IMG/VR virus record: IMGVR_UViG_2718217787_000003
Reading direction: 5' to 3' (one strand)
DNA: 12,066 nt
Source of the DNA: a virus
Lineage: Duplodnaviria; Heunggongvirae; Uroviricota; Caudoviricetes
Positions 1 to 12,066 of the stretch are shown one piece after another. Position 1 is the first letter of the stretch, and each line of letters begins with the position of its first letter. Position numbers and translations under genes: made by a program. The notes under the pieces were generated by a model, which saw only the letters and a program-made list of their open reading frames with translations, did not search any database and was not told the origin of the DNA.

Positions 1-57
1 TGTGTTGTCCTGCATAGCAATGCGCCGTAATACCTTACACCACGGCGCTGATGGTGA

Positions 58-363
58 TTACTCTGGTTCTTTGGTCTTGCGGCGCTGGAGTTCTTCACGT
101 GCGACAGTGACGAGCTGCCCGATCTCCTCGGCGGCTTTGATTCCGAGTTTTTCCACCTGCGCCAGTGCATCGAGCGAAGAAACCAGGGGATTTTCTCCAC
201 TTCCTTCTGCCTGGCGCCGGGCGATCTCACCGCGTACAGCCGTAACTATAAAATTCGCTTTAGTTTCCCCTGGCTGTAGGGATGCCTCAATGCCACTCAC
301 TACTTCATGTGGAAATCTGGCATTCAGTTGCTGTGACTTATTGTTAACAGAACTCCTGGACAT
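58..363 (-). CDS. Arc/Mnt-like ribbon-helix-helix DNA-binding protein (putative repressor), 101 aa
   Basis: The ORF track gives 58..543 (-), but the first in-frame ATG with a strong SD (GGGAGGTG, 6 nt upstream on the - strand) is at 363. The N-terminus QLNARFPHEVVSGIEASL...ANFIVTAVRGEIARR resembles the Arc/Mnt RHH signature (N-x-R-x-P-x-E-V ...). It is transcribed divergently from the rightward operon. Family assignment is by motif recognition only. Confidence 0.6.
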   Translation of the reverse strand: MSRSSVNNKSQQLNARFPHEVVSGIEASLQPGETKANFIVTAVRGEIARRQAEGSGENPLVSSLDALAQVEKLGIKAAEEIGQLVTVAREELQRRKTKEPE

Positions 364-568
364 GTTTGCACCTCCCATTAATAACGGGATGCAGTGTAAT
401 ACAAAAGTGAATACCAAAAAAGACTTGAAATGGTATTCACCTAAATGTAATGTGAATACCACAAGTGCTGATACATGCAATTCAGCAATTGAAACGACGA
501 AGCCCCGCACTGTTGGAGCAGTAACGGGGCTTCTAACCACCAACGATAACGAGAGTATCGAGGTAGCT
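364..568. promoter_or_regulatory. Divergent promoter/operator region between the RHH gene and the rightward operon
   Basis: GTGAATACC at 407-415 and 452-460, with the inverted copy GGTATTCAC at 432-440, giving two overlapping palindromic arrangements. TGTAAT also precedes both direct copies (395-400, 445-450). Candidate rightward promoter: TTGAAA (425-430), 17-nt spacer, TAATGT (448-453). Candidate leftward promoter (- strand): -35 TTGTAT (complement of 399-404), 16-nt spacer, -10 ATTAAT (377-382). A 9-bp inverted repeat GAAGCCCCG (499-507) / CGGGGCTTC (525-533) with a 17-nt spacer is also present. Promoter calls are consensus matches by eye. Confidence 0.4.
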
Positions 569-772
569 ATGAGAAATCATACCACACACCCGCAAGGGCG
601 GGACTCGCACAACCTGAATAAATACATCTGGCGTTTTATCGCCCTGAGCACTGCACAACCGCGCGTGATTACCATTGAGGCCACCAGCGAACAGGAAGCA
701 CGCCAGCAATCTCCGGCTGGCTGCGTGATGGTATTTGCCGCCCGTATTCGTCAGGGGGTGTGCCATGCTTAA
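569..772 (+). CDS. Small protein, 67 aa; hypothetical (tentatively Icd-like host cell division inhibitor family, from memory only)
   Basis: ATG at 569 with SD GAGG (560-563). This is the 3' part of track ORF 2..772, whose upstream portion is antisense to the RHH gene and the intergenic region. Stop TAA at 770-772 overlaps the next start (ATGCTTAA). Sequence MRNHTTHPQG...VITIEATSEQEARQ...VMVFAARIRQG. Confidence 0.5.
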   Translation: MRNHTTHPQGRDSHNLNKYIWRFIALSTAQPRVITIEATSEQEARQQSPAGCVMVFAARIRQGVCHA

Positions 773-950
773 AACCTTCCGTGTATTTGCCAGCGCTGTT
801 AACCCACTAGGCCACACAATTGGTATCGCTCAGAATGTGAAGGCTGTTAATGTTCAGACGGCTATTGCTGCGGTGAGAAGCGAATCATCAGAATATGGCT
901 TATCACAAGTCATTATTTCAGCAGTGTATGAATTAAAAGAGGTGCATTAA
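765..950 (+). CDS. Hypothetical small protein, 61 aa
   Basis: ATG at 765 overlaps the upstream stop, suggesting translational coupling, and is preceded by AGGGGG. Track ORF 735..950 trimmed to the first ATG. No recognisable motif. Confidence 0.45.
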   Translation: MLKTFRVFASAVNPLGHTIGIAQNVKAVNVQTAIAAVRSESSEYGLSQVIISAVYELKEVH

Positions 951-1141
951 TGAAGGAAATTACATTACACGAAGCCGCTGAACGTGCGCACCAGACAGAA
1001 ATTATTTGCCGCCTTCTTGAGGTATACCCTGATAAATTAAATGATGGTGATATATCCGCATTAGCTGGCCTTCTGGCAAAACTTTCTGGAAGTGTTGCGC
1101 TGTGGTTAATTGATGAGAGATTTAAACGCTATGAACAATAA
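950..1141 (+). CDS. Hypothetical small protein, 63 aa
   Basis: ATG at 950 overlaps the upstream stop (TAATG); SD AAAGAGGTG upstream. Predicted helical and acidic. Confidence 0.45.
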   Translation: MKEITLHEAAERAHQTEIICRLLEVYPDKLNDGDISALAGLLAKLSGSVALWLIDERFKRYEQ

Positions 1142-1373
1142 CAAACTGGCGACCAGTGAATTAAGAAGCCTTGCCAACAGCGCAATATCTTTAAACAACG
1201 CAGCGAACGAAGTAATGAACATGTGGCTTCAGTCGCTGGCGAATAATGAACGCGATGAATCAACCGCAAGATTAATATTAGCCGTTTCTGAATTACTGGA
1301 TAGTTCAACCAGCAAAATAGAGAGCATATCAGAGAAGATTAACGGCTTATCAGGTCACGCTATCGGAGAATAA
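1131..1373 (+). CDS. Hypothetical small protein, about 80 aa, N/S/L-rich
   Basis: Track ORF 1110..1373. Candidate starts are TTG 1110, ATG 1113 and ATG 1131; 1131 chosen because GAGAGA lies about 10 nt upstream. The start is uncertain. Overlaps the upstream ORF end. Confidence 0.4.
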   Translation: MNNNKLATSELRSLANSAISLNNAANEVMNMWLQSLANNERDESTARLILAVSELLDSSTSKIESISEKINGLSGHAIGE

Positions 1374-1378
1374 AAATA

Positions 1379-1678
1379 ATGAAACTTAAATATTCTGGCT
1401 TAACTGCCAGCGGCAAAACTCGCACTAAATTCATGTGCGGGGATATTTACCGCGATAAGTACGGCGGCACGGTAATGATTAAGGGCGTGGAGGAACGGCG
1501 CGTAACCTACCATCGTGAAGGCTACGAATATGATTGCGTGATGCCTGTTTATCAGTTCCGGCGTGATTTTTCTCTGGTACAGGCAGCGCCCCGCAGTAAA
1601 CCAACCAGCAGGGAGAAAGCACGCGCCAATATTCAGGAAATAAAAAAGATGCTTAACGTATTCAGGGGTAAAAAATGA
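1379..1678 (+). CDS. Hypothetical basic protein, 99 aa, immediately upstream of and coupled to the replication gene
   Basis: ATG at 1379 with GGAG about 10 nt upstream. Its TGA stop overlaps the primase ATG (ATGA at 1675-1678). Lys/Arg-rich C-terminus. Confidence 0.5.
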   Translation: MKLKYSGLTASGKTRTKFMCGDIYRDKYGGTVMIKGVEERRVTYHREGYEYDCVMPVYQFRRDFSLVQAAPRSKPTSREKARANIQEIKKMLNVFRGKK

Positions 1679-3807
1679 AACTGGCACCGAACGTAAAAAA
1701 ACAGCCACGCGGAATAAAACACAAAGACACAGAGGTGATTATTTTCGCGGGTAGTGATGCGTGGGCACATGCAAAACAGTGGCAGGAGCAGGACGGCCCC
1801 GCATCCGGCGATAATGTGCCTCCTGTGTGGCTTGGGGAGCAGCAGTTATCAGAACTGGATAAGCTGCAAATTGTGCCGGAAGGCAGAAAATCCGTGCGCA
1901 TATTCAGGGCCGGACATCTTGCACCAGTAATGATCAAGGCGATTGGTCAAAAGCTGGCGGCGGCTGGTGTACAGGATGCAAATTTTTATCCTGAGGGTAT
2001 GCACGGTCAGAAGGTGGAGAACTGGCGCGAATATCTGGCCCGTGAGCGGCAGAATCTTTCTGATGGTCTGGTTATTGAGTTTCCGGTAAAGAAAAAAGAT
2101 ACCGGAAGCCATAGCGATGACGAATTAAAGCCACGCGTTGAAAGTCGCGCCGATGGTGTTTTCTGGGTAACGCCCAAAGTGGATAAGCAGTCAGGCGAAA
2201 TTATCCGGCCTGAGACGTGGTTATGTTCTCCGCTTGAACTACTGGGAACGGGGACGATCGGTAAAGAGCATTACCGCGTGATGCGCTGGAAAAAAACCGC
2301 AAACCATGAAGTCATCACAATGGCGATCCCGTGTGGTGGTATCGGCGACCGTGACGGCTGGCGGTTACTTAAAGATCACGGGCTGAACGTGACAACCAAC
2401 GGCAAATACAGGGCAATCCTGGCGGACTGGATGCAGTTAAGCGGAAGCCATGAGGAATGGCAGTTAAGCACAACAACGGGCTGGCATTTTGGCGCGTACA
2501 TCATGCCGGACGGTTCGATCATTGGTGAATCTGAAAAACCGATCCTGTTTACCGGAAAAAGCGCCGCGATTAACGGTTATTCCGTGGCGGGCACGGCGGA
2601 TGGCTGGCGCGACAGCGTGGCGCGGCTGGCTGGCGGTAATGCCTCAATGATACTGGGTGTGGCAACGTCACTGGCAGCGCCTTTAATTGGCCTTGTGGGT
2701 GCTGACGGCTTCGGGGTGCATCTTTTCGAACAGTCATCGGCAGGTAAGACCACCACGCAGAACATCGCATCAAGTTTATGGGGAGAGCCGGACGCGCAGC
2801 GGCTGACCTGGTACGGCACGGCGTTAGGTATTGCCAATGAGGCCGAGGCCCATAATGACGGGCTTTTACCACTGGATGAGATAGGCCAGGCCGGAAATGC
2901 GCGGGAAGTGTCAACGTCTGCTTATACGCTGTTTAACGGTTCAGGGAAATTGCAGGGGGCGAAGGATGGCGGCAACAGGGAGATCAAACACTGGCGAACG
3001 GTGGCAATCAGCACCGGAGAAATGGACGTTGAGACATTCCTCAAAAGTGAGGGGATAAAAGTTAAGGCGGGGCAGCTTGTCCGACTGCTTAACGTTCCGA
3101 TGGAAAAAGCCACGAAATTTCACGAATACAGCAACGGTAAGGAACATGCTGACGCGTTAAAGGATGCCTGGACAGCAAATCACGGGGCGGCGGGTCGTGA
3201 GTGGGTTAAATGGCTGGCAGGCCACCAGCAGGAGGCAAAGGACACGGTAAGGGAATGCCGCGAACGGTGGCGCAACCTGATACCGGAGAGTTACGGCGAG
3301 CAGGTCCACCGCGTGGGTGAACGTTTCGCCATACTGGAGGCCGCGCTTGTGCTTTCCGGTCATGTAACTGGCTGGGTCGTGCAGGAATGCCGCGACGCGA
3401 TACAGCATAACTTTAATGCCTGGGTGAAGGAGTTCGGCACGGGTAACAGGGAATTTAAACAGATGGTTGAACAGGCTGAGGCGTTTTTGTCGTCGTTTGG
3501 GTTTAGCCGCTACCTTCCGTACCCCAATACAGATGAGCGTGATTTACCGATTAAAGAGCTTGCCGGATACAGAAAAGGGAGCATTCGCAACGAAGATGAC
3601 GAGATGCGCTATTACACGTTCCCGCACGTGTTTGAGAGTGAGATAGCGAAGGGATTTAATCCGGCGCATTTTGCGCGTGCCCTGGATGCTGCCGGAATGC
3701 TGGAGAAGGGAAGCGATCGCCGATACAAAAAAAAGGCGCTGGGCAAGATTGGGGGTAAGCAGCATGTTTTTTACGTGCTGATGTTCCAGCCTGATGATGA
3801 AGATTAA
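1675..3807 (+). CDS. Replication initiator: primase-associated (DUF927-like) region plus P-loop NTPase (Pri-Rep type of satellites/PICIs), 710 aa
   Basis: A 2.1-kb ORF with SD AGGGG 7 nt upstream of ATG 1675. Walker A motif GVHLFEQSSAGKTT at aa 347-360 (nt about 2713-2754). Its position immediately upstream of an iteron array matches the primase-then-ori layout of P4-like satellites and PICIs. Domain names are from motif recognition, not a search. Confidence 0.85.
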   Translation: MKLAPNVKKQPRGIKHKDTEVIIFAGSDAWAHAKQWQEQDGPASGDNVPPVWLGEQQLSELDKLQIVPEGRKSVRIFRAGHLAPVMIKAIGQKLAAAGVQDANFYPEGMHGQKVENWREYLARERQNLSDGLVIEFPVKKKDTGSHSDDELKPRVESRADGVFWVTPKVDKQSGEIIRPETWLCSPLELLGTGTIGKEHYRVMRWKKTANHEVITMAIPCGGIGDRDGWRLLKDHGLNVTTNGKYRAILADWMQLSGSHEEWQLSTTTGWHFGAYIMPDGSIIGESEKPILFTGKSAAINGYSVAGTADGWRDSVARLAGGNASMILGVATSLAAPLIGLVGADGFGVHLFEQSSAGKTTTQNIASSLWGEPDAQRLTWYGTALGIANEAEAHNDGLLPLDEIGQAGNAREVSTSAYTLFNGSGKLQGAKDGGNREIKHWRTVAISTGEMDVETFLKSEGIKVKAGQLVRLLNVPMEKATKFHEYSNGKEHADALKDAWTANHGAAGREWVKWLAGHQQEAKDTVRECRERWRNLIPESYGEQVHRVGERFAILEAALVLSGHVTGWVVQECRDAIQHNFNAWVKEFGTGNREFKQMVEQAEAFLSSFGFSRYLPYPNTDERDLPIKELAGYRKGSIRNEDDEMRYYTFPHVFESEIAKGFNPAHFARALDAAGMLEKGSDRRYKKKALGKIGGKQHVFYVLMFQPDDED

Positions 3808-3829
3808 TCCCCTGTGTGAGGAAAAAAAT

Positions 3830-4145
3830 TGCGGGTTATGCGGGTTATCCTGTGTATAAGTGTATTAAGTGTATGAATATAAAGGAAATCAATAACCCGC
3901 ACGTAACCCGCAAAAGGGCATTTATAACCCGCAAAAGCACGATTATAACCCGCAGGCGAATAACTGAAGTAACACCGGACAGTCATGCGTAACCCGCAGA
4001 AAAAACCCCGTTTGCGGGTTATTTTGAGCGTTTTGCGGGTTACGTGGTGAGCAAATAATAAACAGGGTGTTTTGCAACATGCTGATATAAAAGGGTAAAA
4101 AATGGTTAGCACGCTAAGATAACCCAATAACCCGCATAACCCGCA
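3830..4145. repeat. Iteron-type origin of replication
   Basis: Seven direct copies of TAACCCGCA (3893-3901, 3904-3912, 3925-3933, 3946-3954, 3990-3998, 4128-4136, 4137-4145) and four inverted copies TGCGGGTTA (3830-3838, 3839-3847, 4013-4021, 4034-4042), with a degenerate copy at 4120-4127. Three GTGTAT-containing repeats with roughly 9-10 bp spacing at 3852-3880. A (TA)n AT-rich tract lies just downstream at 4153-4170. No credible ORF on the + strand here. Confidence 0.8.
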
Positions 4146-4179
4146 CATGTTTCTATATATATATAAATTGAGGTGGCAA

Positions 4180-4431
4180 ATGACCAGAACACGCAGAGAC
4201 AGAACAGAGCCGAAATATAAAGCGTTAGATATAACAGAGCTGGCCTTAAAGGTGGCAATCAGAACGATAGACCGACACGTAGGGGAAGGATACGCGAAGG
4301 AACATCCCGACCTGATAAGCGCATTCATGACCACAGCAGCGGCAAACTTTGCCACGTTGACAGAACGGGAGATTGCCGAAGCGGAACAGGTAACAACCAT
4401 CAACGTTAAAACCGGAGAGTTGAAATCATGA
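4180..4431 (+). CDS. Hypothetical protein, 83 aa
   Basis: ATG at 4180 preceded by SD GAGGTGG (4170-4176); track ORF 4147..4431 trimmed. Stop overlaps the next start (ATGA at 4428-4431). Confidence 0.55.
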   Translation: MTRTRRDRTEPKYKALDITELALKVAIRTIDRHVGEGYAKEHPDLISAFMTTAAANFATLTEREIAEAEQVTTINVKTGELKS

Positions 4432-4733
4432 GCGAACCAAAATTTGGTGAAAAACTTTACAAGCACAACGGACGGATCACGATTCAGCAAATAAGCGCAG
4501 CTACACCAGGCTGGTGGGTTGAAACAGACGAAGGATCCTCACCCGTGGCATCATGGGCGCTTTGTGTGCTTAGTTACCCTGACCGCGATGTGTATCAGGA
4601 TATTCTGCCTGTGATATCCACTGACAAAGGCATGAAACCCGTAGACATCAAAAACATGGGTTTTCAGTGCGTAATGCTCACTGAAAAAATGATGGAAGAG
4701 ATGAAAAAGAATAACGCCGGATCGCTTCACTGA
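4428..4733 (+). CDS. Hypothetical protein, 101 aa
   Basis: ATG at 4428 overlaps the upstream stop. No recognisable motif (MSEPKFGEKLYKHNGRITIQQ...). Confidence 0.55.
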   Translation: MSEPKFGEKLYKHNGRITIQQISAATPGWWVETDEGSSPVASWALCVLSYPDRDVYQDILPVISTDKGMKPVDIKNMGFQCVMLTEKMMEEMKKNNAGSLH

Positions 4734-4742
4734 GGTGGCAAT

Positions 4743-5153
4743 ATGACAGCACAAATTGCAGCTTACGGGCGGCTGGTGGACGACCCGCAGGTAAAACAGA
4801 CCAGCAAGGGTACACCGATGACGCTGGCGCGTATGGCGGTATCGCTGCCATGCAGCCAGGCACAGGATGGACAGGCGACGTTATGGCTATCGGTCATCGC
4901 ATTTGGTAAGCAGGCCGACTTCCTGGCTAAACATCAAAAAGGCGACGTTGCCAGCGTATCCGGCACGATGCAGGTCAGCCAGTGGACCGGACAGAACGGG
5001 GAAACGCGGCAGGGTTATCAGGTTATTGCAGACAGCGTAATCAGTGCCCGTGCGGCACGTCCTGGTGGGAGCCGACGCAAGACCACAGGCACACAGGGTA
5101 ATCAGCCACCAGCGGGAGGCGATGACCCTTACGGTGATGATATTCCGTTCTGA
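4743..5153 (+). CDS. ssb: Single-stranded DNA-binding protein, compact, 136 aa
   Basis: SD GAGGTGG (4732-4738) before ATG 4743. OB-fold-like core (...WLSVIAFGKQADFLAKHQKGDVASVSGTMQVSQWTGQNGETRQGYQVIADSV...) followed by a Gly/Pro-rich linker and the canonical SSB acidic C-terminal tip DDIPF (E. coli SSB ends DDDIPF). Confidence 0.85.
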   Translation: MTAQIAAYGRLVDDPQVKQTSKGTPMTLARMAVSLPCSQAQDGQATLWLSVIAFGKQADFLAKHQKGDVASVSGTMQVSQWTGQNGETRQGYQVIADSVISARAARPGGSRRKTTGTQGNQPPAGGDDPYGDDIPF

Positions 5154-5165
5154 GGGGTGGGGACG

Positions 5166-5438
5166 ATGGTACATGACCGCATAGCGGAAGAACTGGAGGC
5201 GAAAGGCTTTTACCGGAGAGCGTCGGCGCGATGGGGTGAAGTCATGCAACTGGTGGAGACAGACAAGGAACGGCATCAGGTTACGATGCGACGGCTGGAA
5301 TGTTCCAGGAAGGCACAGAGGCCACCGGAGCCGCCGGATAATTACGGAGACCTGAAAAAGGCGGTCGATCGCACTTATGCCGAAATGGGTATGGATGGTG
5401 CTGGTGATGAAATATGGCGAAATTACCAGGACAGATAA
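5166..5438 (+). CDS. Possible PerC-family transcriptional regulator, 90 aa
   Basis: ATG at 5166 with SD GAGGGGTGGGGA upstream; the track ORF starts at GTG 5157. N-terminus MVHDRIAEELEAKGFYRRASARWGEVM resembles the PerC/Pch family signature as I remember it; family call is tentative. Followed by a terminator. Confidence 0.55.
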   Translation: MVHDRIAEELEAKGFYRRASARWGEVMQLVETDKERHQVTMRRLECSRKAQRPPEPPDNYGDLKKAVDRTYAEMGMDGAGDEIWRNYQDR

Positions 5439-5444
5439 TCACAC

Positions 5445-5468
5445 AGCCGGAGCAATCCGGCTTTTTGT
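5445..5468 (+). terminator. Rho-independent terminator after the PerC-like gene
   Basis: Stem AGCCGGA (5445-5451), loop GCAA, stem TCCGGCT (5456-5462), then TTTTGT (5463-5468). Confidence 0.6.
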
Positions 5469-5485
5469 CATGTTTTGTAAATTAT

Positions 5486-5635
5486 TTGTTCGTGGTTGTT
5501 CCACGTTGTTCGCTGACCGGATCGGCATATTTTACCCGAACTGAATCATGATTATTCTCGCCCGTGGTGCCAGGACGCTGGGGCCACTTTCCCGCCTGTT
5601 AATGTGCTCGCCAATATTCATTACCAGGCGGGAAA
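5486..5635. promoter_or_regulatory. Leader of the head operon with tandem decamers and an 11-bp inverted repeat
   Basis: Three tandem 10-bp units TTGTTCGTGG / TTGTTCCACG / TTGTTCGCTG (5486-5515), containing the palindrome CGTGG-TTGTT-CCACG (5491-5505). An 11-bp perfect inverted repeat TTTCCCGCCTG (5588-5598) / CAGGCGGGAAA (5625-5635) with a 26-nt spacer. No clear sigma-70 consensus identified. Confidence 0.3.
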
Positions 5636-5725
5636 ACGATCGGTGCGATTGCTGATTTCCTTATGAAAAACGGTTGAGTGTTTGCCGCGTCCTGGAGTTC
5701 CTTACTTAACTTCAGGACTTTTTTT

Positions 5726-6883
5726 ATGCCGAGAATAATCGAATTACGCCAGCAGAAAACCGCCATTAAAAATCAGATGCGCGACATGCTGGAGAACGCG
5801 GAAAAAGAAAACCGCAGCCTTAACGATGCTGAGGGCGCAAAATTTGACGAATTACGCGCTAAAGCTGAATCCCTCGATAAAGACATCTCCCGCCTTGAGG
5901 CCGTTGCTGACGAAGAGCGCAGTAAACCAGGCAAAAACAGCCAGACCACTGACCCCGCCGAACTACGTCACTACATTCTGACAGGTGAAACCCGCGCATT
6001 GAGTACAGGCGTTCCCGCTGATGGTGGTTATACCGTTATCCCCGAACTGAACACCGAAATCATGCGAATGCTGACGGATGAATCCACCATGCGCCGCATC
6101 TGTACCGTGAAGAAAATCAGCAGCAACGAGTTTAAGCAGCTTGTTTCCGCTGGCGGTGCGACCGTTAACCACGGTGAAGAGGGTAAGGCACGCGAACAGA
6201 CCAGCACCCCGCAGATTAACGAGGTGAGCATTAAGCTGTATCCGGTCTATGCGTACCCGCGCACCACGCAGGAAATCGTGGATTTTTCCGATGTGGACAT
6301 CCTTTCATGGCTGACGGGCGAGATTGGCGACACCTTCACGGAAACCGAAGAAAGCGATCTGGTTGTGGGCGACGGTGACAAAAAAGCAAAAGGTTTTTTA
6401 TCCGTACCCCGTGCAGAGAAGAACGACAAAGAGCGTGATTTTGGTACGTTGCAGGTAATTAAACCTTCCGAATCTCTGGCGTGGACATCTGCGGACCCGC
6501 TGATCGACCTGAAATTTGCATTACGTAAAAAATACCGCAAAAACGCGGTTTGGGTGGTTAACTCCACGACGGCGGCAAAACTCCAGAAGGTGAAGAACGC
6601 GAACGGTGATTACATCTGGCGCGACCGTTTACAGGCGGGTGATCCTGATACGTTGCTGGGCCTTCCGGTCGAATATCTGGAGTTTATGCCTGATAACGTT
6701 ATTGCCCTGGGTGACTTCAAACGCGGTTACTACATTGTTGATCACGAAACAGGTGTTCGCACCAGACCGGACAACCTCACAGAGCCGGGCTTTATCAAAA
6801 TTTTCACGCAGAAATATTTAGGCGGTGGCGTGGTGGATTCGAACGCTATAAAGATTCTGGAACTGCCGCAGGACGACGATTAA
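5726..6883 (+). CDS. Major capsid protein, HK97 fold, with N-terminal coiled-coil delta (scaffold-like) domain, 385 aa
   Basis: ATG at 5726 with AGGA 8 nt upstream; the track ORF begins at GTG 5678. The N-terminal 90 aa are coiled-coil-like (IELRQQKTAIKNQMRDMLENAEKENRSLNDAEGAKFDELRAKAESLDKDISRLEAV), followed by a body typical of HK97-family capsid proteins. A prohead protease gene follows directly. Confidence 0.9.
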   Translation: MPRIIELRQQKTAIKNQMRDMLENAEKENRSLNDAEGAKFDELRAKAESLDKDISRLEAVADEERSKPGKNSQTTDPAELRHYILTGETRALSTGVPADGGYTVIPELNTEIMRMLTDESTMRRICTVKKISSNEFKQLVSAGGATVNHGEEGKAREQTSTPQINEVSIKLYPVYAYPRTTQEIVDFSDVDILSWLTGEIGDTFTETEESDLVVGDGDKKAKGFLSVPRAEKNDKERDFGTLQVIKPSESLAWTSADPLIDLKFALRKKYRKNAVWVVNSTTAAKLQKVKNANGDYIWRDRLQAGDPDTLLGLPVEYLEFMPDNVIALGDFKRGYYIVDHETGVRTRPDNLTEPGFIKIFTQKYLGGGVVDSNAIKILELPQDDD

Positions 6884-6892
6884 CAGCACACC

Positions 6893-6922
6893 GAAGGGGC
6901 TAAAAAGCCCCTTCTCTGTTTT
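6893..6922 (+). terminator. Terminator or attenuator hairpin just after the capsid gene
   Basis: Stem GAAGGGGC (6893-6900), loop TAAAAA, stem GCCCCTTC (6907-6914), then TCTGTTTT (6915-6922). Confidence 0.55.
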
Positions 6923-6937
6923 ACAGGTGAAAAAATT

Positions 6938-7495
6938 ATGATGAGTATGGAAATCCGGTCATCGGAAATCACCACCAGCGGCAGCAACACGCTTACGGGC
7001 TACGTTGTTCGCTGGGATAACCTTTCAGAACTGCTATGGGGCGAATTTTACGAAAAATTCCAGCGGGGGGCGTTTACTGAATGGCTTGCGGTGGGTAATG
7101 ACGTTCGCGGCCTGTATGAGCATGACCACAGCATGTTACTGGGGCGCACCCGTTCCGGTACGCTGAGACTGGAAGAGGATGACACAGGGTTACGTTTTGA
7201 ACTGATCCCACCGGATACCAGCACAGGGCGGGACGTTATCGAACTGGTTAAACGTGGTGACATCTCGGGCATGAGCTTTGGCTTTCGTTCCCGTAAGGAT
7301 GTATGGGATACGACAGTCGATCCATGTGTGCGTACTGTACTGATAGCGGAACTGTACGAAATTACCGTGACATCCGTACCGGCTTACCCTGATTCCGGCG
7401 TGGAGCTGGCCCGCCGTTCCCTGTATGAGCAGCACCCTGAAAAAATGCCTCGTGCGGATAATCGCCGCTGGTGGGCGGATTTAGCGGGGGTGTGA
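6938..7495 (+). CDS. Prohead maturation protease, HK97 family, 185 aa
   Basis: SD AGGTGA (6925-6930) before ATG 6938. Sequence (…LTGYVVRWDNLSELLWGEFYEKFQRGAFTEWL…) and position between the capsid and portal genes fit HK97-type prohead proteases. Confidence 0.85.
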   Translation: MMSMEIRSSEITTSGSNTLTGYVVRWDNLSELLWGEFYEKFQRGAFTEWLAVGNDVRGLYEHDHSMLLGRTRSGTLRLEEDDTGLRFELIPPDTSTGRDVIELVKRGDISGMSFGFRSRKDVWDTTVDPCVRTVLIAELYEITVTSVPAYPDSGVELARRSLYEQHPEKMPRADNRRWWADLAGV

Positions 7496-7496
7496 T

Positions 7497-8708
7497 ATGT
7501 GGCCTTTCAGAAGAAAAAAAGAGCAGCGCAGCATGACGCTTGATGAGTTTATGGCGCTGGCTGGCACATCGAACACGGGGGCGGGTGAGTACGTATCATC
7601 GGGGACAGCGGAATCACTGCCCGCCGTCATGAACGCCGTCACGGTCATCTCTGAGGCGGTGGCTACCATGCCGTGTTACCTGTACCTGGTACGCAATGAG
7701 AAGGGGAAGGAGGCCCGAGAGTGGCTTGATTCTCATCCGGTCGATCACATCCTCAACGAGCGCCCGAACGCATGGCAAACCCCCTACCAGTTTAAGCGAA
7801 TGATGATCCGCCACTGCCTGTTAAACGGTAATGCTTATGCGGTGATTCGGTGGGGGCGTGATGGTTTTCCGGTGGCTTTACATCCTTACCCGCCGCAGTC
7901 GGTGAACGTGGAGCAGACAGGTGAGCATAACTGGCGCTACTGCATCACTGACGCCTACACCGGAAACACCCGCAACTATTTACCGTGGGAGGTTCTCCAC
8001 CTTCGTTACTCCACGGATGACGGTTTTATGGGGCGCTCACCTGTAACCATCTGCCGCGAATCGCTGGGGCTTGGGCTGGCCCAACAACGCCACGGCGCGA
8101 GCGTGATGCGTGATGGCATGATGGCGGCAGGGGTTATCACGTCAGGCGAGTGGCTGGACGGCGTGAAGGGTAAACAGGCATTAGCCGCACTGGAACGCTA
8201 CAAAGGGGCCAGAAACGCCGGAAAAACGCCCATCCTTGAAGGGGGTATGAGCTATCAGCAGCTGGGCATGAGTAATCAGGATGCTGAATGGCTGGCCTCC
8301 CGTCGCTTCACCATTGAAGACATCGCCCGAATGTTCAACGTCTCGCCGATTTTTTTGCAGGAATACAGCAACAGCACCTACAGCAATTTCAGCGAGGCAA
8401 GCCGCGCATTTCTCACCATGACGATGCGCCCGTGGCTGGCGAACTTTGAGCAGCAGATAAAAAACGCCCTGCTGGTGGCCTCGCCTGTACCTGGTATCCG
8501 GTATCAGGTGGAGTTTGACAGCGCGGACCTGTTACGGGCCACACCTGGCGAACGCTTTGCCACCTATGAACGCGGCATCAAATCCGGCGTTATGTGCCCG
8601 AACGAAGCCCGCGAACGTGAAGGGCTGTCCCCGCGTGATGGTGGTGATGAGTTCAGCCAGGCATGGAAACAGGAAGTAAAAATCAGCGAGGGAGAAAAAC
8701 CGGAATGA
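7497..8708 (+). CDS. Portal protein, HK97 family, 403 aa
   Basis: ATG at 7497, 1 nt after the protease stop, with SD GGGGGTG upstream. Size and sequence character fit HK97-type portals. An alternative start at ATG 7539 is possible. Confidence 0.85.
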   Translation: MWPFRRKKEQRSMTLDEFMALAGTSNTGAGEYVSSGTAESLPAVMNAVTVISEAVATMPCYLYLVRNEKGKEAREWLDSHPVDHILNERPNAWQTPYQFKRMMIRHCLLNGNAYAVIRWGRDGFPVALHPYPPQSVNVEQTGEHNWRYCITDAYTGNTRNYLPWEVLHLRYSTDDGFMGRSPVTICRESLGLGLAQQRHGASVMRDGMMAAGVITSGEWLDGVKGKQALAALERYKGARNAGKTPILEGGMSYQQLGMSNQDAEWLASRRFTIEDIARMFNVSPIFLQEYSNSTYSNFSEASRAFLTMTMRPWLANFEQQIKNALLVASPVPGIRYQVEFDSADLLRATPGERFATYERGIKSGVMCPNEAREREGLSPRDGGDEFSQAWKQEVKISEGEKPE

Positions 8709-9043
8709 ACATAGGGCGACTGCGTGACAGGATAACGATTCAGACCCTGAAACAGACCAGGGATATAACCGGCGAAATACTCGAAACGTGGGTGGACGGT
8801 CACACACTCTGGGCAAGCGTGAACATGATCAGCAGCAAGGAGGCCATTTCATCGGGTGCAGAACTGGCGACTGGAACGGTAAGGATATGGATACGCTACA
8901 GGAAGGACATCAACGCCACCAGCCGGATAAAGGTCAATACGGGGCCGCTGGCGGGGCGTGTACTGAATATCATCGGGCAGCCGCTGCCGGATGCCGCCAG
9001 GACACGCCTTGAAATTCTTTGTCGTGAGGGCGCGGAAAAATGA
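8705..9043 (+). CDS. Head closure / head-tail joining protein (SPP1 gp16-like), 112 aa
   Basis: ATG at 8705 overlaps the portal stop (ATGA); track ORF 8663..9043 trimmed to this ATG. MNIGRLRDRITIQ...RIWIRYRKDI...LEILCRE matches the head-tail joining family pattern as I recall it. Confidence 0.75.
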   Translation: MNIGRLRDRITIQTLKQTRDITGEILETWVDGHTLWASVNMISSKEAISSGAELATGTVRIWIRYRKDINATSRIKVNTGPLAGRVLNIIGQPLPDAARTRLEILCREGAEK

Positions 9044-9336
9044 CAGAAGAACTTATCACCCTGGAAGAAGTGAAACTCCATTGCCGCATCGATGGCGACG
9101 AGGAAGACCAGTTAATCAGCGGATACATCGCCGCATCGCTTGAGGCGTGCCAGATACACATAGGCAGGCGCTTTGATGACGGGCTGGAGTTCACGCCAGC
9201 CATAAAGATTGGCTGCATGATGTTTATCGCTCACCTGTATGAAAATCGCCAGATTGTCGCGGATAACGCAAAAACACGCGTACCCATGACGATTGGTGCA
9301 CTCTGGACGGCTTACCGTGATGTGGGGGTGTACTGA
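9040..9336 (+). CDS. gp6-like head-tail connector protein, 98 aa
   Basis: ATG at 9040 overlaps the upstream stop (ATGA). N-terminus LITLEEVKLHCRIDGDEEDQLISGYIAAS is typical of gp6-like connector proteins. Confidence 0.75.
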   Translation: MTEELITLEEVKLHCRIDGDEEDQLISGYIAASLEACQIHIGRRFDDGLEFTPAIKIGCMMFIAHLYENRQIVADNAKTRVPMTIGALWTAYRDVGVY

Positions 9337-9776
9337 TGCCGTGGCAACCATTAAGACGATGCACAGAACCAGGCTGTAACAGGCGCGTGAAGTCCGGCAA
9401 GTGTGAGGAGCACAGGCGGGCGGCATGGCGTGCAGAGGATGCCAGACGAGGACACCGCCGCGCGCGTGGGTACTCCAGACAGTGGGACAAATACCGCGCC
9501 ATGTATCTGAGTAAAAACCCGTTATGCGTGCGATGCCTTGAGAAGGGGATATATACGCCCGCCGTGGTGGTGGATCACATTATCCCGATTAATGGCGGTG
9601 ATGATGTTCTCTTCTGGCCCGAATGGAACCATCAGCCATTGTGCCAGGCGTGCCATAACCAGAAAACGAAATGGCTTGATCCGGCAACAAAAAGCAAGCG
9701 TGCCGCAGGTGGATTTCGTGAAGAGGAAGAACGGGCCGCTAACCGCAATAACTGGATGTATGACGCTGATGAATGA
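9336..9776 (+). CDS. HNH endonuclease (packaging-associated), 146 aa
   Basis: ATG at 9336 overlaps the connector stop (TGATG). Cys pairs (CxxC) and an HNH core DHIIPINGGDDVLFWPEWNHQPLCQACHNQKT. Sits directly upstream of the terminase genes, as in HK97-like cos phages. Confidence 0.9.
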   Translation: MPWQPLRRCTEPGCNRRVKSGKCEEHRRAAWRAEDARRGHRRARGYSRQWDKYRAMYLSKNPLCVRCLEKGIYTPAVVVDHIIPINGGDDVLFWPEWNHQPLCQACHNQKTKWLDPATKSKRAAGGFREEEERAANRNNWMYDADE

Positions 9777-9942
9777 GCGGGAACAAAACCGCCTTATCCG
9801 TGGACTTATAAGGCAGCGTGACGCATGGAAGACACAGGAAACAGGGCATAAAGATAAAGCGTCAGGACGCGCAGAACGCATCACAGCGAAGCGATTAACC
9901 GACCGTGACTGCGAGGTTATGGAATGTTTCCGCAATCGCTGA
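9760..9942 (+). CDS. Possible small basic ORF (60 aa) in the HNH-terS gap; doubtful
   Basis: Part of track ORF 9538..9942, most of which overlaps HNH out of frame. Only the part from ATG 9760 (or ATG 9769) is non-overlapping. No convincing SD. Confidence 0.2.
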   Translation: MTLMNEREQNRLIRGLIRQRDAWKTQETGHKDKASGRAERITAKRLTDRDCEVMECFRNR

Positions 9943-10064
9943 TGAGGCTGTATGACGGGGTGGGGGGCGTTTTCAGGACAAACCCGCCCCCGCCGGGCAC
10001 CGAACGCCTCCTCAAATTTTTATGCACGGGAATTTTTTGAAAAATAATCTGACGAAAAATAAAC
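9943..10064. other. Candidate packaging site (cos) region between HNH and terS
   Basis: Non-coding gap with a G-run/C-run imperfect inverted repeat, GGGGGCG (9963-9969) / CGCCCCC (9985-9991), followed by an AT-rich stretch (10015-10062). Location matches where cos lies in HNH-associated cos phages. No direct evidence of cleavage. Confidence 0.3.
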
Positions 10065-10421
10065 ATGGCAAGACCACCGAAAGCCCCCGCCTACCTTGAT
10101 GACATCGCCGTAAAGCAGTGGCGGGAAAAATCGCGCCAGCTTGCGGAACGGGGAGACCTCACCCCCGCCGACTGGAGTAATCTCGAACTGTATTGCGTCA
10201 ACTACTCGATATACAGGAAAGCCGTCGCAGACCTTGCGGCACGCGGGTTCAGCATTGTTAACAGTCAGGGCGGAGAGAGCAGAAACCCCGCATTAAGCGC
10301 GAAATCCGACGCTGAAAGAGTGATGATAAAAATGGCCTCCTTGCTTGGTTTTGACCCGATAAGCCGCCGTAAAAATCCACCGGAAACAGAAGAAGAGGAC
10401 GAGCTTGACCACCTGGAATAA
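10065..10421 (+). CDS. terS: Terminase small subunit, P27-family-like, 118 aa
   Basis: ATG at 10065. Size, charge pattern (acidic C-terminus EEEDELDHLE) and position directly upstream of terL. Sequence (MARPPKAPAYLDD...RNPALSA...MASLLGFDPISRRK) fits P27-type TerS as I recall it. Confidence 0.8.
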   Translation: MARPPKAPAYLDDIAVKQWREKSRQLAERGDLTPADWSNLELYCVNYSIYRKAVADLAARGFSIVNSQGGESRNPALSAKSDAERVMIKMASLLGFDPISRRKNPPETEEEDELDHLE

Positions 10422-12066
10422 GTACGCAGAAGACGTAAAAACGGGCAAAATTCCGGCCTGTAAACGGTTAAAACAGGCCGTTAAACGGTACTTTTCGGAC
10501 CTTAAAAGTCCCCTTTACACGTTCGATAGTGAGGTTGTGGAGCGGTTTATTGCCTTTTCAAGGGTGTGCCCGCACGTAAAAGGGCCGTTGCGTGGCAGAC
10601 CCATTGAGCTGGAGCCGTGGCAGCAGTTCGCCTTTGCGTGCATCCTGGGTTTTAAGGTTAAGGCCACCGGACGGCGCAAATACTCGAGCGCTTTTATCGA
10701 AGTACCGCGAAAAAATGCGAAATCCACGACCGCCGCGATTCTGGCTGACTGGTTTCTGATTATGGAGAACGGGCAGCAGGATATTTACACCGCAGCGGTG
10801 AGCCGTGACCAGGCACGGATCGTGTTTGATGATGCGCGTCAGATGTGCCTTTTATCCCGACCGTTACGCAGGCGGGTGAATATTCAGGCCCACAAGGTGA
10901 TACACCCGAAAACCAACAGCCTGTTAAAGCCGCTGGCAGCAAAAGCGGCAACCATCGAGGGGACAAACCCGAGTCTTGCCATTGTGGACGAATATCACCT
11001 GCACCCCGATAACGGCGTTTATTCCGCGCTTGAGCTGGGGATGGGTGCACGTCCCGAAGGGCTGTTATTTGCCATTACCACATCGGGAAGTAACGTCGTT
11101 TCAGCCTGTAAGCAGCACTATGATTATTGCTGCCAGATCCTGGACGGCGAAGAGGTCAACGAATCGCTTTTTGTGCTGATTTACGAGCTGGACGATGAAA
11201 ACGAGGTTGACGATCCGGCGATGTGGATAAAGGCGAATCCCAATATCGATGTTTCCGTTGATCGTGAAAAACTGGCCTCAACCATCCAGAAAGCGCGGGG
11301 TATTCCGTCGCAGTGGGTGGAGATGATGACAAAGCGGTTTAACATCTGGTGCCAGGGGGCCACCCCGTGGATGGGTAACGGGGCGTGGGCTGAGTGTGCC
11401 GGAACGTTCACGGAGGAGGATTTACACGGCCAGGAATGTTACGCGGGGCTTGATTTGTCATCCACAAGCGACATTTCCAGCGTGTGCTATGCCTTTCCGG
11501 TCGGCAAAAAAATTATGCTGCTTTCCCGTCACTATCTGCCGGAATTTCAGCTACAGAACCCCGCCAACAAGAACCGGGCCATTTATCGCCAGTGGGCTAA
11601 ATCGGGCTGGTTGCGGATAACGCCGGGCGACTGCATTGATTACGACCGGATCCGCGATGACATCATGGAGGACGCGGAAAAATTTGATATCAGGCTGGTG
11701 GGCTTTGATACGTGGAACGCCACGCATCTCAGGACGCAATTACAGGGGGCAGGGTTTGAGGTTGAGCCGTTCCCGCAAACCTATCTGAGATTCAGTCCGG
11801 CGGCGAAATCGTTCGAAGTTTTTGTTAACCGCAGGGTGATAGTCCATCGTGATGATCCGGTGTTGTCGTGGTCGATGAGTAACGTCGTGATGCAGAGTGA
11901 CGCGAACGCCAATATCAAGCCAAACAAGAAAAAATCACCGAACAAGATAGACCCGAGCGTGGCGGCACTGATGGCGTTTGGCACATTCCAGGCAGAGCAT
12001 GAAGATTTTGCTTTTGATATAAGCGACAGCCACCGCGAAAAACTGGAAGAATTTAACGGGGTGTGA
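10405..12066 (+). CDS. terL: Terminase large subunit, 553 aa
   Basis: A 1.66-kb ORF directly after terS. The first in-frame start is TTG at 10405 with SD GAAGAGGA (10391-10398); the next candidates are a GTG about 130 nt downstream and an ATG at codon 120. Overlaps terS by 17 nt. Size and sequence fit HK97-type large terminases (ATPase plus nuclease). Stop TGA at 12064-12066 is the window end. Confidence 0.88.
   Translation: MTTWNKYAEDVKTGKIPACKRLKQAVKRYFSDLKSPLYTFDSEVVERFIAFSRVCPHVKGPLRGRPIELEPWQQFAFACILGFKVKATGRRKYSSAFIEVPRKNAKSTTAAILADWFLIMENGQQDIYTAAVSRDQARIVFDDARQMCLLSRPLRRRVNIQAHKVIHPKTNSLLKPLAAKAATIEGTNPSLAIVDEYHLHPDNGVYSALELGMGARPEGLLFAITTSGSNVVSACKQHYDYCCQILDGEEVNESLFVLIYELDDENEVDDPAMWIKANPNIDVSVDREKLASTIQKARGIPSQWVEMMTKRFNIWCQGATPWMGNGAWAECAGTFTEEDLHGQECYAGLDLSSTSDISSVCYAFPVGKKIMLLSRHYLPEFQLQNPANKNRAIYRQWAKSGWLRITPGDCIDYDRIRDDIMEDAEKFDIRLVGFDTWNATHLRTQLQGAGFEVEPFPQTYLRFSPAAKSFEVFVNRRVIVHRDDPVLSWSMSNVVMQSDANANIKPNKKKSPNKIDPSVAALMAFGTFQAEHEDFAFDISDSHREKLEEFNGV

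Follow-up and report, generated by a model that had tools for sequence, protein, structure and literature searches.

A chromosomal island in the thiM leader of Escherichia coli O157 is very probably a mosaic sibling of the capsid-forming satellite EcCIEDL933

Does a stretch of DNA that joins a replicon to a complete set of HK97-type head genes, with no tail or lysis gene in view, stem from a phage or from a satellite that builds its own capsids? This question is raised by a 12,066-nt stretch of DNA (here referred to as the window), which is filed as virus record IMGVR_UViG_2718217787_000003. A first-pass annotation, made from the letters alone, had read it as a capsid-forming phage-inducible chromosomal island (cf-PICI), i.e. 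a satellite that packages its DNA into small heads of its own and takes the tails from a helper phage. Our analysis supports this reading with high confidence: the window very probably represents most of a cf-PICI of Escherichia coli O157 that is a mosaic sibling of EcCIEDL933, the prototype cf-PICI (Alqurainy et al. 2022, bioRxiv 10.1101/2022.09.08.507074). The island belongs to an already known and well-studied family, of which it is a new member very close to the prototype.

The full-length window was found with 100% identity in the chromosomes of the E. coli O157 strains 10671, MB41-1 and Al Ain, and with 97.9% identity in that of the O157 strain F8092B. At a coverage of at least 80%, a copy is present in 107 of 5,426 complete E. 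coli genomes. The chromosomal setting is described here in a 36-kb context from MB41-1 (locus L001, where the coordinate equals the window position + 12000). Alignment of both island junctions to the rcnR-thiM intergenic region of E. coli K-12 placed the crossover in a 14-bp att core, AGAAAT(G/A)CCCGTAT, which occurs as AGAAATGCCCGTAT at L001 9207-9220 and as AGAAATACCCGTAT at L001 25286-25299. From core to core the island measures 16,079 bp (about -2793 to +13285 in window coordinates), and the reconstructed empty site gave uninterrupted 100% matches in many O157:H7 genomes. The window is the central 12 kb of this intact island. The element had previously been taken to start at position 1675; positions 1-1674 are also part of the island, which runs past both window ends. 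Perfect 70-bp direct repeats inside the island (L001 9306-9375 and 25153-25222; 86 and 63 nt from the attL and attR cores, respectively) were considered as att sites and rejected, as the K-12 alignment puts the crossover in the 14-bp core farther out.

Extending the window both ways, as the first-pass annotation had proposed, revealed a P4-type integrase, an AlpA regulator and the att cores, with host genes directly outside both of them. The tyrosine integrase, which bears a P4-type arm-binding domain (PF00589 and PF13356, Arm-DNA-bind_3), lies directly inside the left core at L001 9409-10629, i.e. 1.4-2.6 kb upstream of the window, so that the integrase is found about 2.6 kb from window position 1. 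Between it and the AlpA regulator (L001 11491-11715; PF05930 Phage_AlpA, 59.3 bits at a cut-off of 21; phrog_2790) there is a 257-aa open reading frame (ORF) with no assigned function. Downstream of terL, a 93-aa ORF is followed by about 800 nt of non-coding DNA, the att core and thiM-thiD, which places thiM about 1.3 kb past terL in the chromosome. No tail or lysis genes were seen between the att cores in the annotated context or in four complete genomes, and no ORF matched a tail, baseplate, holin or endolysin family in Pfam and PHROGs scans. What had been noted for the window, namely that tail and lysis genes are absent, therefore holds for its flanks up to the att cores as well.

The anatomy of the island is that of a cf-PICI. 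The SatelliteFinder cfPICI model asks for 11 core components, all of which the island has, and forbids tail and holin components, none of which it contains. The island also has the features by which He et al. 2025 (bioRxiv 10.1101/2025.02.11.637232) define cf-PICIs: a size of 10-18 kb (as given in their Methods), an integrase, replication and regulation modules, an eight-gene packaging module, and no lysis or tail module. The replication module is its own, with a DUF927/phrog_1139 replicase and 11 iterons, and so are the capsid, protease, portal, adaptor, head closure, HNH, TerS and TerL proteins; capsid, protease and portal score far above the Pfam gathering thresholds. Genes were called from a six-frame ORF listing together with Pfam, PHROGs and NCBIfam profiles, and all named genes pass curated thresholds. 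Those named in the first-pass annotation were present at or very near the places where it had put them.

In strain EDL933, EcCIEDL933 is an island of about 15 kb between roxA and phoQ (NZ_CP008957.1, ~1,680,200-1,695,500; locus L005), with the same protein accessions in ATCC 35150. Its gene order and size class are those of the window island. DNA identity between the two amounts to 98.8% over window positions -191 to 55, 99.35% over 731-4431 (small ORFs, rep and origin), 93.9% over 4732-5466 (SSB and PerC) and 95.9% over 5440-12374, which comprises the whole packaging operon. A search with capsid, portal and TerL, also proposed earlier, gave 96.6-99.3% identity to EcCIEDL933. Protein by protein, the identities are 709/710 for Rep, 381/385 for the capsid protein, 93.2% for the protease, 400/403 for the portal, 106/112 (94.6%) for the head closure protein, 98/98 for the adaptor, 145/146 for HNH, 59/60 for a 60-aa ORF, 117/118 for TerS and 96.6% for TerL. 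The iterons, a triple of TTGTTY boxes before the capsid gene and repeats of about 54 nt at the right end are also common to both islands.

The prototype has been studied by experiment. A helper phage activates alpA of EcCIEDL933, which is needed for induction and transfer; every packaging gene is needed for transfer and none for replication; and helper capsid or terminase mutants are without effect, whereas helper tail mutants abolish transfer (Alqurainy et al. 2022). The EcCIEDL933 capsid is a 47.5-nm T=4 shell made of the island capsid protein alone, from which the N-terminal domain is removed by proteolysis, and DNA-filled tail-less heads are released and then join free tails, with HK106 tails being used and HK022 tails not (He et al. 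2025). Judged by the likeness of its proteins to those of EcCIEDL933 (capsid 381/385, the others 93-100%), the window island would likewise make its own small capsids, package only its own DNA and, with induction by a helper through alpA, depend on the helper for tails alone.

Phages did not offer a comparable match. When the packaging module was compared with 50,697 phage records, no full-size phage showed a DNA-level match. Only six records share 65-70% DNA identity, over parts of the module. The best of these matches are 15-16.5 kb long and have a cf-PICI architecture (vB_KppS-Ant and Pasteurella phage Pmp8); the other weak matches are short fragments.

The left end of the window island is a different module. 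Compared with EcCIEDL933, its integrase is only 67.5% and its AlpA 51% identical, the small gene beside int is unrelated, and the att site lies in the thiM riboswitch instead of the roxA/phoQ intergenic region. A classical PICI that occupies thiM in strain TUM1881 (NZ_CP128979.1, locus L004), in contrast, has an integrase of 99% protein and 96.9% DNA identity to that of the window island, along with the same att core, 70-bp arm repeats and thiM riboswitch site. Its alpA region is 90% identical, its DUF927 Rep gene shows 87% DNA identity over part, and SSB, PerC and the terminal 93-aa ORF are shared too; this last ORF, which follows terL in the window island, is found on classical PICIs as well. 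The TUM1881 island of 13.8 kb nevertheless has no capsid, protease, portal, neck, HNH or TerL genes and carries ProQ/FinO and DUF1441 genes instead. By sequence comparison, the window island is a mosaic that joins a classical-PICI-type int/alpA module to EcCIEDL933 replication and packaging modules. This fits the published pattern in which regulators and primases move between PICI and cfPICI, but capsid and TerS genes do not.

Smaller differences to EcCIEDL933 occur along the island. Window positions 55-731 have no homology to the prototype and form a replaced segment with a minus-strand YlcI/YnfO gene and another Icd-like variant. A 101-aa ORF at 4428-4733 is absent from EcCIEDL933, which in turn carries a 74-aa ORF between perC and the capsid gene that the window island lacks. 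The right-end non-coding region is largely unlike that of EcCIEDL933. A second, near-identical cf-PICI (EcCIEDL933) at roxA/phoQ of MB41-1 was also considered and rejected. This site holds a classical PICI (L008 10720-22000, corresponding to NZ_CP039834.1 3,208,720-3,220,000) with an EcCIEDL933-type integrase and AlpA, a RepA helicase, lambda E/D-like capsid and decoration genes and a TerS-like gene; MB41-1 is therefore among the uncommon genomes with both a PICI and a cfPICI.

Within the window, the genes form one long plus-strand array from 1379 to 12066. The HK97-fold major capsid protein (5726..6883; PF05065, E=2e-61; TIGR01554) has an N-terminal delta domain and the cleavage motif STGVPAD, which marks the start of the mature protein from S93 and is the conserved capsid cleavage motif described by He et al. 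2025. It matches the solved structure PDB 9GYI with E=4e-255 and differs from it at V60I, N71S, H82N and A155T, of which only A155T lies in the mature protein. As the same four differences separate the window capsid from 9GYI and from EcCIEDL933, 9GYI has the EcCIEDL933 capsid sequence. The next nearest solved structures are not those of HK97 but the capsids 6TB9 and 6TBA of the Rhodobacter capsulatus gene transfer agent (E ~1e-46). The capsid gene is followed by those for an S78 prohead maturation serine protease (6938..7495; PF04586, E=4.4e-46; TIGR01543), the portal (7497..8708; PF04860, E=1e-90; TIGR01537), the SPP1 gp16-like head closure protein Hc1, which forms the distal neck ring (8705..9043; PF05521; TIGR01563; phrog_25), and the gp6-like head-tail adaptor or connector Ad1 (9040..9336; PF05135; phrog_40; TIGR01560), which has the accession WP_000134113.1 in common with EcCIEDL933. 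That such neck proteins set which helper tails are taken, as the first-pass annotation had anticipated, has already been shown by adaptor/connector gene swaps between cf-PICIs, which change tail specificity (He et al. 2025).

Then come an HNH endonuclease (9336..9776; PF01844; phrog_144, E=8e-45), which is a packaging cofactor of HK97-type cos terminases, a P27-family TerS (10065..10421; PF05119, E=1.3e-23; TIGR01558) and TerL with its ATPase and nuclease domains (10405..12066; PF03354 and PF20441; phrog_9, E=1.9e-181). terL is complete and ends with its stop codon exactly at the window end. Between hnh and terS there is the plus-strand 60-aa ORF (9760..9942; phrog_3173), which had been left out of the earlier list of head genes. 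Counting from the capsid gene as gene 1786, it would be the counterpart of EcCIEDL933 gene 1792, whose mutation causes a severe drop in transfer and which is partly required (Alqurainy et al. 2022). The order of capsid, protease, portal and connector genes followed by hnh-terS-terL corresponds to the Proteobacterial cf-PICI order, in which the morphogenesis genes precede hnh-terS-terL (Alqurainy et al. 2022).

Packaged cf-PICI DNA has cohesive cos ends (He et al. 2025). In the window, a cos cleavage region is predicted at 9957..9994, where G-rich and C-rich segments surround TTTTCAGGAC; the 60-aa ORF and terS are separated here by 122 nt. In the linear vB_KppS-Ant record, the last letters are GGGGTGGGGGAGGTTTTCAGGAC, a sequence that aligns to window 9957-9979, and the record starts again 22 nt before terS. 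Both are suggestive of a cos site at about window position 9980, but not more than that.

Several observations weigh against this overall reading of the window island. With an AlpA of 51% and an integrase of 67.5% identity, the inducing helper and the excision behaviour could differ, and the six head-closure substitutions, namely D20A, I21M, V30E, T56I, N78S and A97V, and the roughly 7% divergence of the protease could alter tail choice or maturation. The predicted cos position depends on where a single database record begins and ends, and these ends may be conventional, as records are sometimes rotated. The excised form of the island, in which the attP joint is predicted to read GGAATTAGTAAGAAAT(G/A)CCCGTATTTTCTCATT, had no exact match in the IMG/VR viromes or the JGI metagenomes. 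Such a lack of the attP form in public viromes and metagenomes would also be in line with a decayed and immobile prophage remnant that has retained its head genes, as would the fact that EDL933-type islands of similar size have long been annotated as cryptic prophages. We give a remnant no more than a small chance, because the 20-odd ORFs are all intact and 93-100% identical to those of an element shown to be mobile, both att cores and both 70-bp arm repeats are intact, and just one short pseudogene remnant is annotated. In addition, other PICIs at the thiM site use the same int-alpA module, a sign of recent modular recombination and not of decay.

An ordinary HK97-like temperate prophage with its tail and lysis genes just outside the window would account for the head and packaging genes, every one of which falls into an HK97-type phage family, and the region past terL is not visible from the window alone. 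The chromosome, however, makes this extremely improbable: terL is followed by the 93-aa ORF, about 800 nt of non-coding DNA, the att core and thiM; int comes directly after the other att core upstream; the whole element spans 16 kb; and its empty site is intact in hundreds of genomes. No tail, lysis or lysogeny-control modules lie between the att cores, and where the first-pass annotation would have expected the tail and lysis genes of a prophage, host genes follow beyond att on the thiM side as well as on the int side. It is also very improbable that the island is a classical PICI of the EcCICFT073 type or a P4-like satellite that remodels the capsid proteins of a helper. Its left half with P4-type integrase, AlpA, DUF927 replicase, SSB and PerC is indeed common to classical E. 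coli PICIs, but the SatelliteFinder PICI model does not allow a portal, adaptor, head closure or TerL, all of which the island encodes. No Sid, Psu, Delta, epsilon or Rpp-like family was matched in Pfam and PHROGs scans of the island ORFs, and helper capsid mutants leave the transfer of EcCIEDL933 unaffected (Alqurainy et al. 2022). The reading as a cf-PICI has the support of both the anatomy of the island and its identity to EcCIEDL933.

Where does this cf-PICI sit? The att core lies inside the thiamine pyrophosphate (TPP) riboswitch aptamer of thiM, with the junctions at L001 9171-9299 and 25265-25347 (window ~-2829 and +13265). The attB core AGAAATACCCGTAT spans J3-2 and P2 of the aptamer. 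Scored with the TPP aptamer model RF00059 (Rfam gathering score, 54.3 bits), the intact K-12 thiM leader reached 71.2 bits, compared to 36.9 bits for the attR junction and 20.0 bits for the attL junction; a scan of the locus at the gathering threshold found no TPP riboswitch at the island junctions. At attR, P3 is missing and the conserved UGAGA is changed to UAAGA. RefSeq has a riboswitch annotated under empty-site matches, but not under occupied-site matches. Of 5,426 complete E. coli genomes, 75 (~1.4%) have the attR junction, where the island end meets the thiM leader. As the single mismatch in the core is a G at attL and an A at attR, strand exchange probably takes place within the AGAAAT part.

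The insertion splits the aptamer such that the thiM promoter and the 5' half would read towards int, while thiMD keep the 3' half and the expression platform. In minimum-free-energy folds, the native and the hybrid leader keep the same long helix and leave the Shine-Dalgarno sequence mostly unpaired. According to these models, translation of thiMD from the hybrid leader should therefore be constitutively 'on', if this leader is transcribed. A consensus scan of the right end of the island found no outward-facing sigma-70 promoter for thiM. We consider it possible, though not probable, that an integrase lineage shared with classical PICIs has the thiM aptamer core as its attB and that its insertion uncouples thiMD from TPP control. 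If so, carriage of the satellite would free thiamine salvage and the expression of hydroxymethylpyrimidine phosphate (HMP-P) kinase from TPP control, and transcription of int might be tied to the thiM promoter.

A limited literature search found no paper on thiM or a riboswitch as att site of PICIs or integrases, and the island may have been listed before. Two scans of species-representative genomes for integrase relatives outside E. coli returned only proteins of at most 68% identity, none of them beside a TPP element. Insertion into a riboswitch aptamer is apparently undescribed; for a mobile element to rewire an RNA that senses a metabolite would be unusual. The chromosome upstream of the thiM leader is unlike that of K-12: rcnR and the thiM riboswitch are separated in the O157 strain by about 2.1 kb (L001 7007-9170) that have no K-12 counterpart and contain an outer membrane protein gene, a hypothetical gene and an HTH (helix-turn-helix)-like gene, and K-12 homology resumes only at CAACCAAACGAC.

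The att arms share a sequence pattern with the region before the capsid gene. Three TTGTTY boxes at 10-bp phasing lie in each of the 70-bp repeats, as do two TGTGGTCAG boxes. Three TTGTTY boxes with 10-bp phasing occur again on the plus strand at 5486..5511, shortly downstream of the terminator-like hairpin of perC and about 215 nt ahead of the capsid ATG. The pattern TTGTTYN4TTGTTYN4TTGTTY is found at only three places in the 36 kb of L001, with 0 expected. In EcCIEDL933, this triple likewise precedes the capsid gene, and both att arms contain paired boxes. The triple may represent a binding site for Int or AlpA. These findings suggest, without proving it, that one protein, either the arm-binding domain of Int or AlpA acting like Cox of P2, occupies the att arms and the capsid leader and so links excision to the control of the late operon. 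The antiterminator AlpA of Pseudomonas is a possible model for the action of the island AlpA.

The capsid leader contains further signals. The first-pass annotation had the head genes directly follow SSB; both are present, but perC, a terminator-like hairpin after it (5445..5462) and a 290-nt leader intervene. A second terminator-like hairpin with 11 pairs and a T-run (5689..5718) stops 8 nt short of the capsid start codon and includes the likely Shine-Dalgarno sequence. This hairpin is conserved in EcCIEDL933 and suggests antitermination or translational control of the packaging operon. At the other end of the island, the non-coding region holds four copies of a unit of about 54 nt with CTAACCCnTTGAT, TTTCGrAAAC and a small hairpin (L001 24611-24922; window 12611-12922). 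The unit was also found at L005 34766-35183, L004 29850-29898 and L008 11140-11190, and an nhmmer profile placed it only at the right ends of the four PICIs examined, cf-PICI and classical ones alike. Compensatory changes occur in 5 of the 11 predicted pairs of its hairpin. An Rfam scan of the island and its right end gave only the broken TPP element and one chance snoRNA match, and left the unit unmatched.

The left part of the window holds small genes and the replication module. A pseudogene remnant annotated by RefSeq as an incomplete Icd-like CDS (L001 11726-12175) extends into the window with its 3' part on the plus strand (1..175) and belongs to the regulatory region of the island. The 101-aa YlcI/YnfO-family protein at 58..363 (RefSeq; phrog_6522, E=1.9e-45) is encoded by the sole minus-strand gene. 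On the plus strand, it is followed by a small protein like the host cell division inhibitor Icd (569..772; RefSeq; 50.7% identical to the Icd-like protein of EcCIEDL933), by three small conserved ORFs of 61, 63 and 80 aa (765..1373; phrog_3672, phrog_1478 and phrog_5796; 95-100% aa identity to EcCIEDL933 ORFs) and by a DUF4222 protein (1379..1678; PF13973, 80.8 bits; 96% identical to EcCIEDL933), the gene for which overlaps the start of rep.

The DUF927 primase-replicase initiator (1675..3807; PF06048, E=1.4e-48; phrog_1139 DNA primase, E=7.9e-191) carries the GKT motif SSAGKTT, in agreement with the primase and P-loop seen in the first pass, and has a Cch-like HTH at its C-terminus. The iteron origin reported after rep is real as well (3823..4170). 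The 9-mer TAACCCGCA occurs in 11 exact copies in both orientations, all within 3830-4145, where 0.14 copies were expected and 0 of 200 shuffles reached 11; an AT-rich stretch follows at 4147-4170. The origin sits within the block of 99.35% identity to EcCIEDL933. Downstream on the plus strand are an 83-aa conserved ORF (4180..4431; phrog_1231; 97.6% identical to EcCIEDL933), the 101-aa ORF mentioned above (phrog_27268, E=1.3e-69), which had no Pfam and no PADLOC match, SSB (4743..5153; PF00436, E=4.2e-17; 98.5% identical to EcCIEDL933) and a PerC-family transcriptional activator (5166..5438; PF06069, 148 bits). No unannotated ORF of the island matched a PADLOC defence system, and the segments 55-731 and 4428-4733 are without a Pfam function. 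PerC/Pch proteins control the locus of enterocyte effacement (LEE) pathogenicity island in enteropathogenic and enterohaemorrhagic E. coli (EPEC and EHEC), and PerC on the island could have a side effect on virulence regulation. A 2025 ISME J paper (PMC11773190) reports a PICI that affects LEE expression.

Taken together with the work on EcCIEDL933, a life cycle can be proposed. A helper phage would switch on alpA, as shown for EcCIEDL933, and Int, probably with AlpA, would excise the island from the att cores in the thiM riboswitch. Going by the anatomy of the module, the DUF927 replicase would bind the adjacent TAACCCGCA iterons and replicate the circle, assisted by the island SSB. Portal, delta-domain capsid protein and S78 protease would build T=4 heads of about 47 nm, which has been demonstrated for the 99%-identical capsid protein. 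HNH, TerS and TerL would then cut at the predicted cos (~window 9980) and place one 16-kb genome in each head; at 16.08 kb, it is only ~0.6 kb above the 15.5 kb held by the T=4 head of EcCIEDL933 and should therefore fit. Finally, adaptor and head closure would seal the neck, and the tail-less heads would become infectious by binding free tails of a helper siphovirus, as EcCIEDL933 does with HK106-type tails. Given an identical adaptor and six substitutions in the head closure protein, we expect from the sequences that HK106-type tails are used, possibly in a modulated manner.

The identity of the island by itself adds little that is new: the first descriptions of cf-PICIs date from 2022-2023, those of their capsid structure and tail piracy from 2025, and SatelliteFinder already places cf-PICIs in ~13% of Enterobacteriaceae genomes. 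Worth pursuing are the swap of the int/alpA module and, above all, the insertion into the thiM riboswitch. The swap supports the published view that PICI and cf-PICI families exchange their left halves, and offers a natural test of which half decides on helper induction and which on tail choice. With its six head-closure substitutions beside an unchanged adaptor, the island also provides a ready variant for mapping tail specificity.

How does the island relate to other known systems? Like the window island, satellite P4 has an integrase with an arm-binding domain, an AlpA-family regulator, a primase-helicase replicon and virion parts that depend on a helper. P4 lacks genes for a capsid, portal or terminase and uses Sid to reshape the capsids of P2, whereas Pfam and PHROGs scans detected none of the P4 hijacking genes on the window island. 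With HK97-type siphophages (HK97 and the helper HK106), the window island shares the families of the capsid protein (delta domain and HK97 fold), S78 protease, portal, gp6-like adaptor and gp16-like head closure as well as an HNH-dependent cos terminase. These phages, however, have genomes of ~40 kb, T=7 heads and their own tail, lysis and lysogeny genes; the window island is without these genes and, by homology, would form T=4 heads.

Pasteurella phage Pmp8 (15.3 kb) and vB_KppS-Ant (16.5 kb) are both filed as phages despite their cf-PICI architecture. The latter (LR881103.1, 16,548 bp), an 'Escherichia phage' from an induced prophage, is much more divergent and differs from the window island in its primase and in a large 765-aa cargo gene after terL. 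Nevertheless, its layout of terS-terL, int, regulator, primase, capsid, protease, portal, neck, HNH and a small ORF is like that of the window island, the DNA identity amounts to ~70% from capsid to HNH, and its right terminus bears the conserved GGGGTGGGGG..TTTTCAGGAC motif, as does the window.

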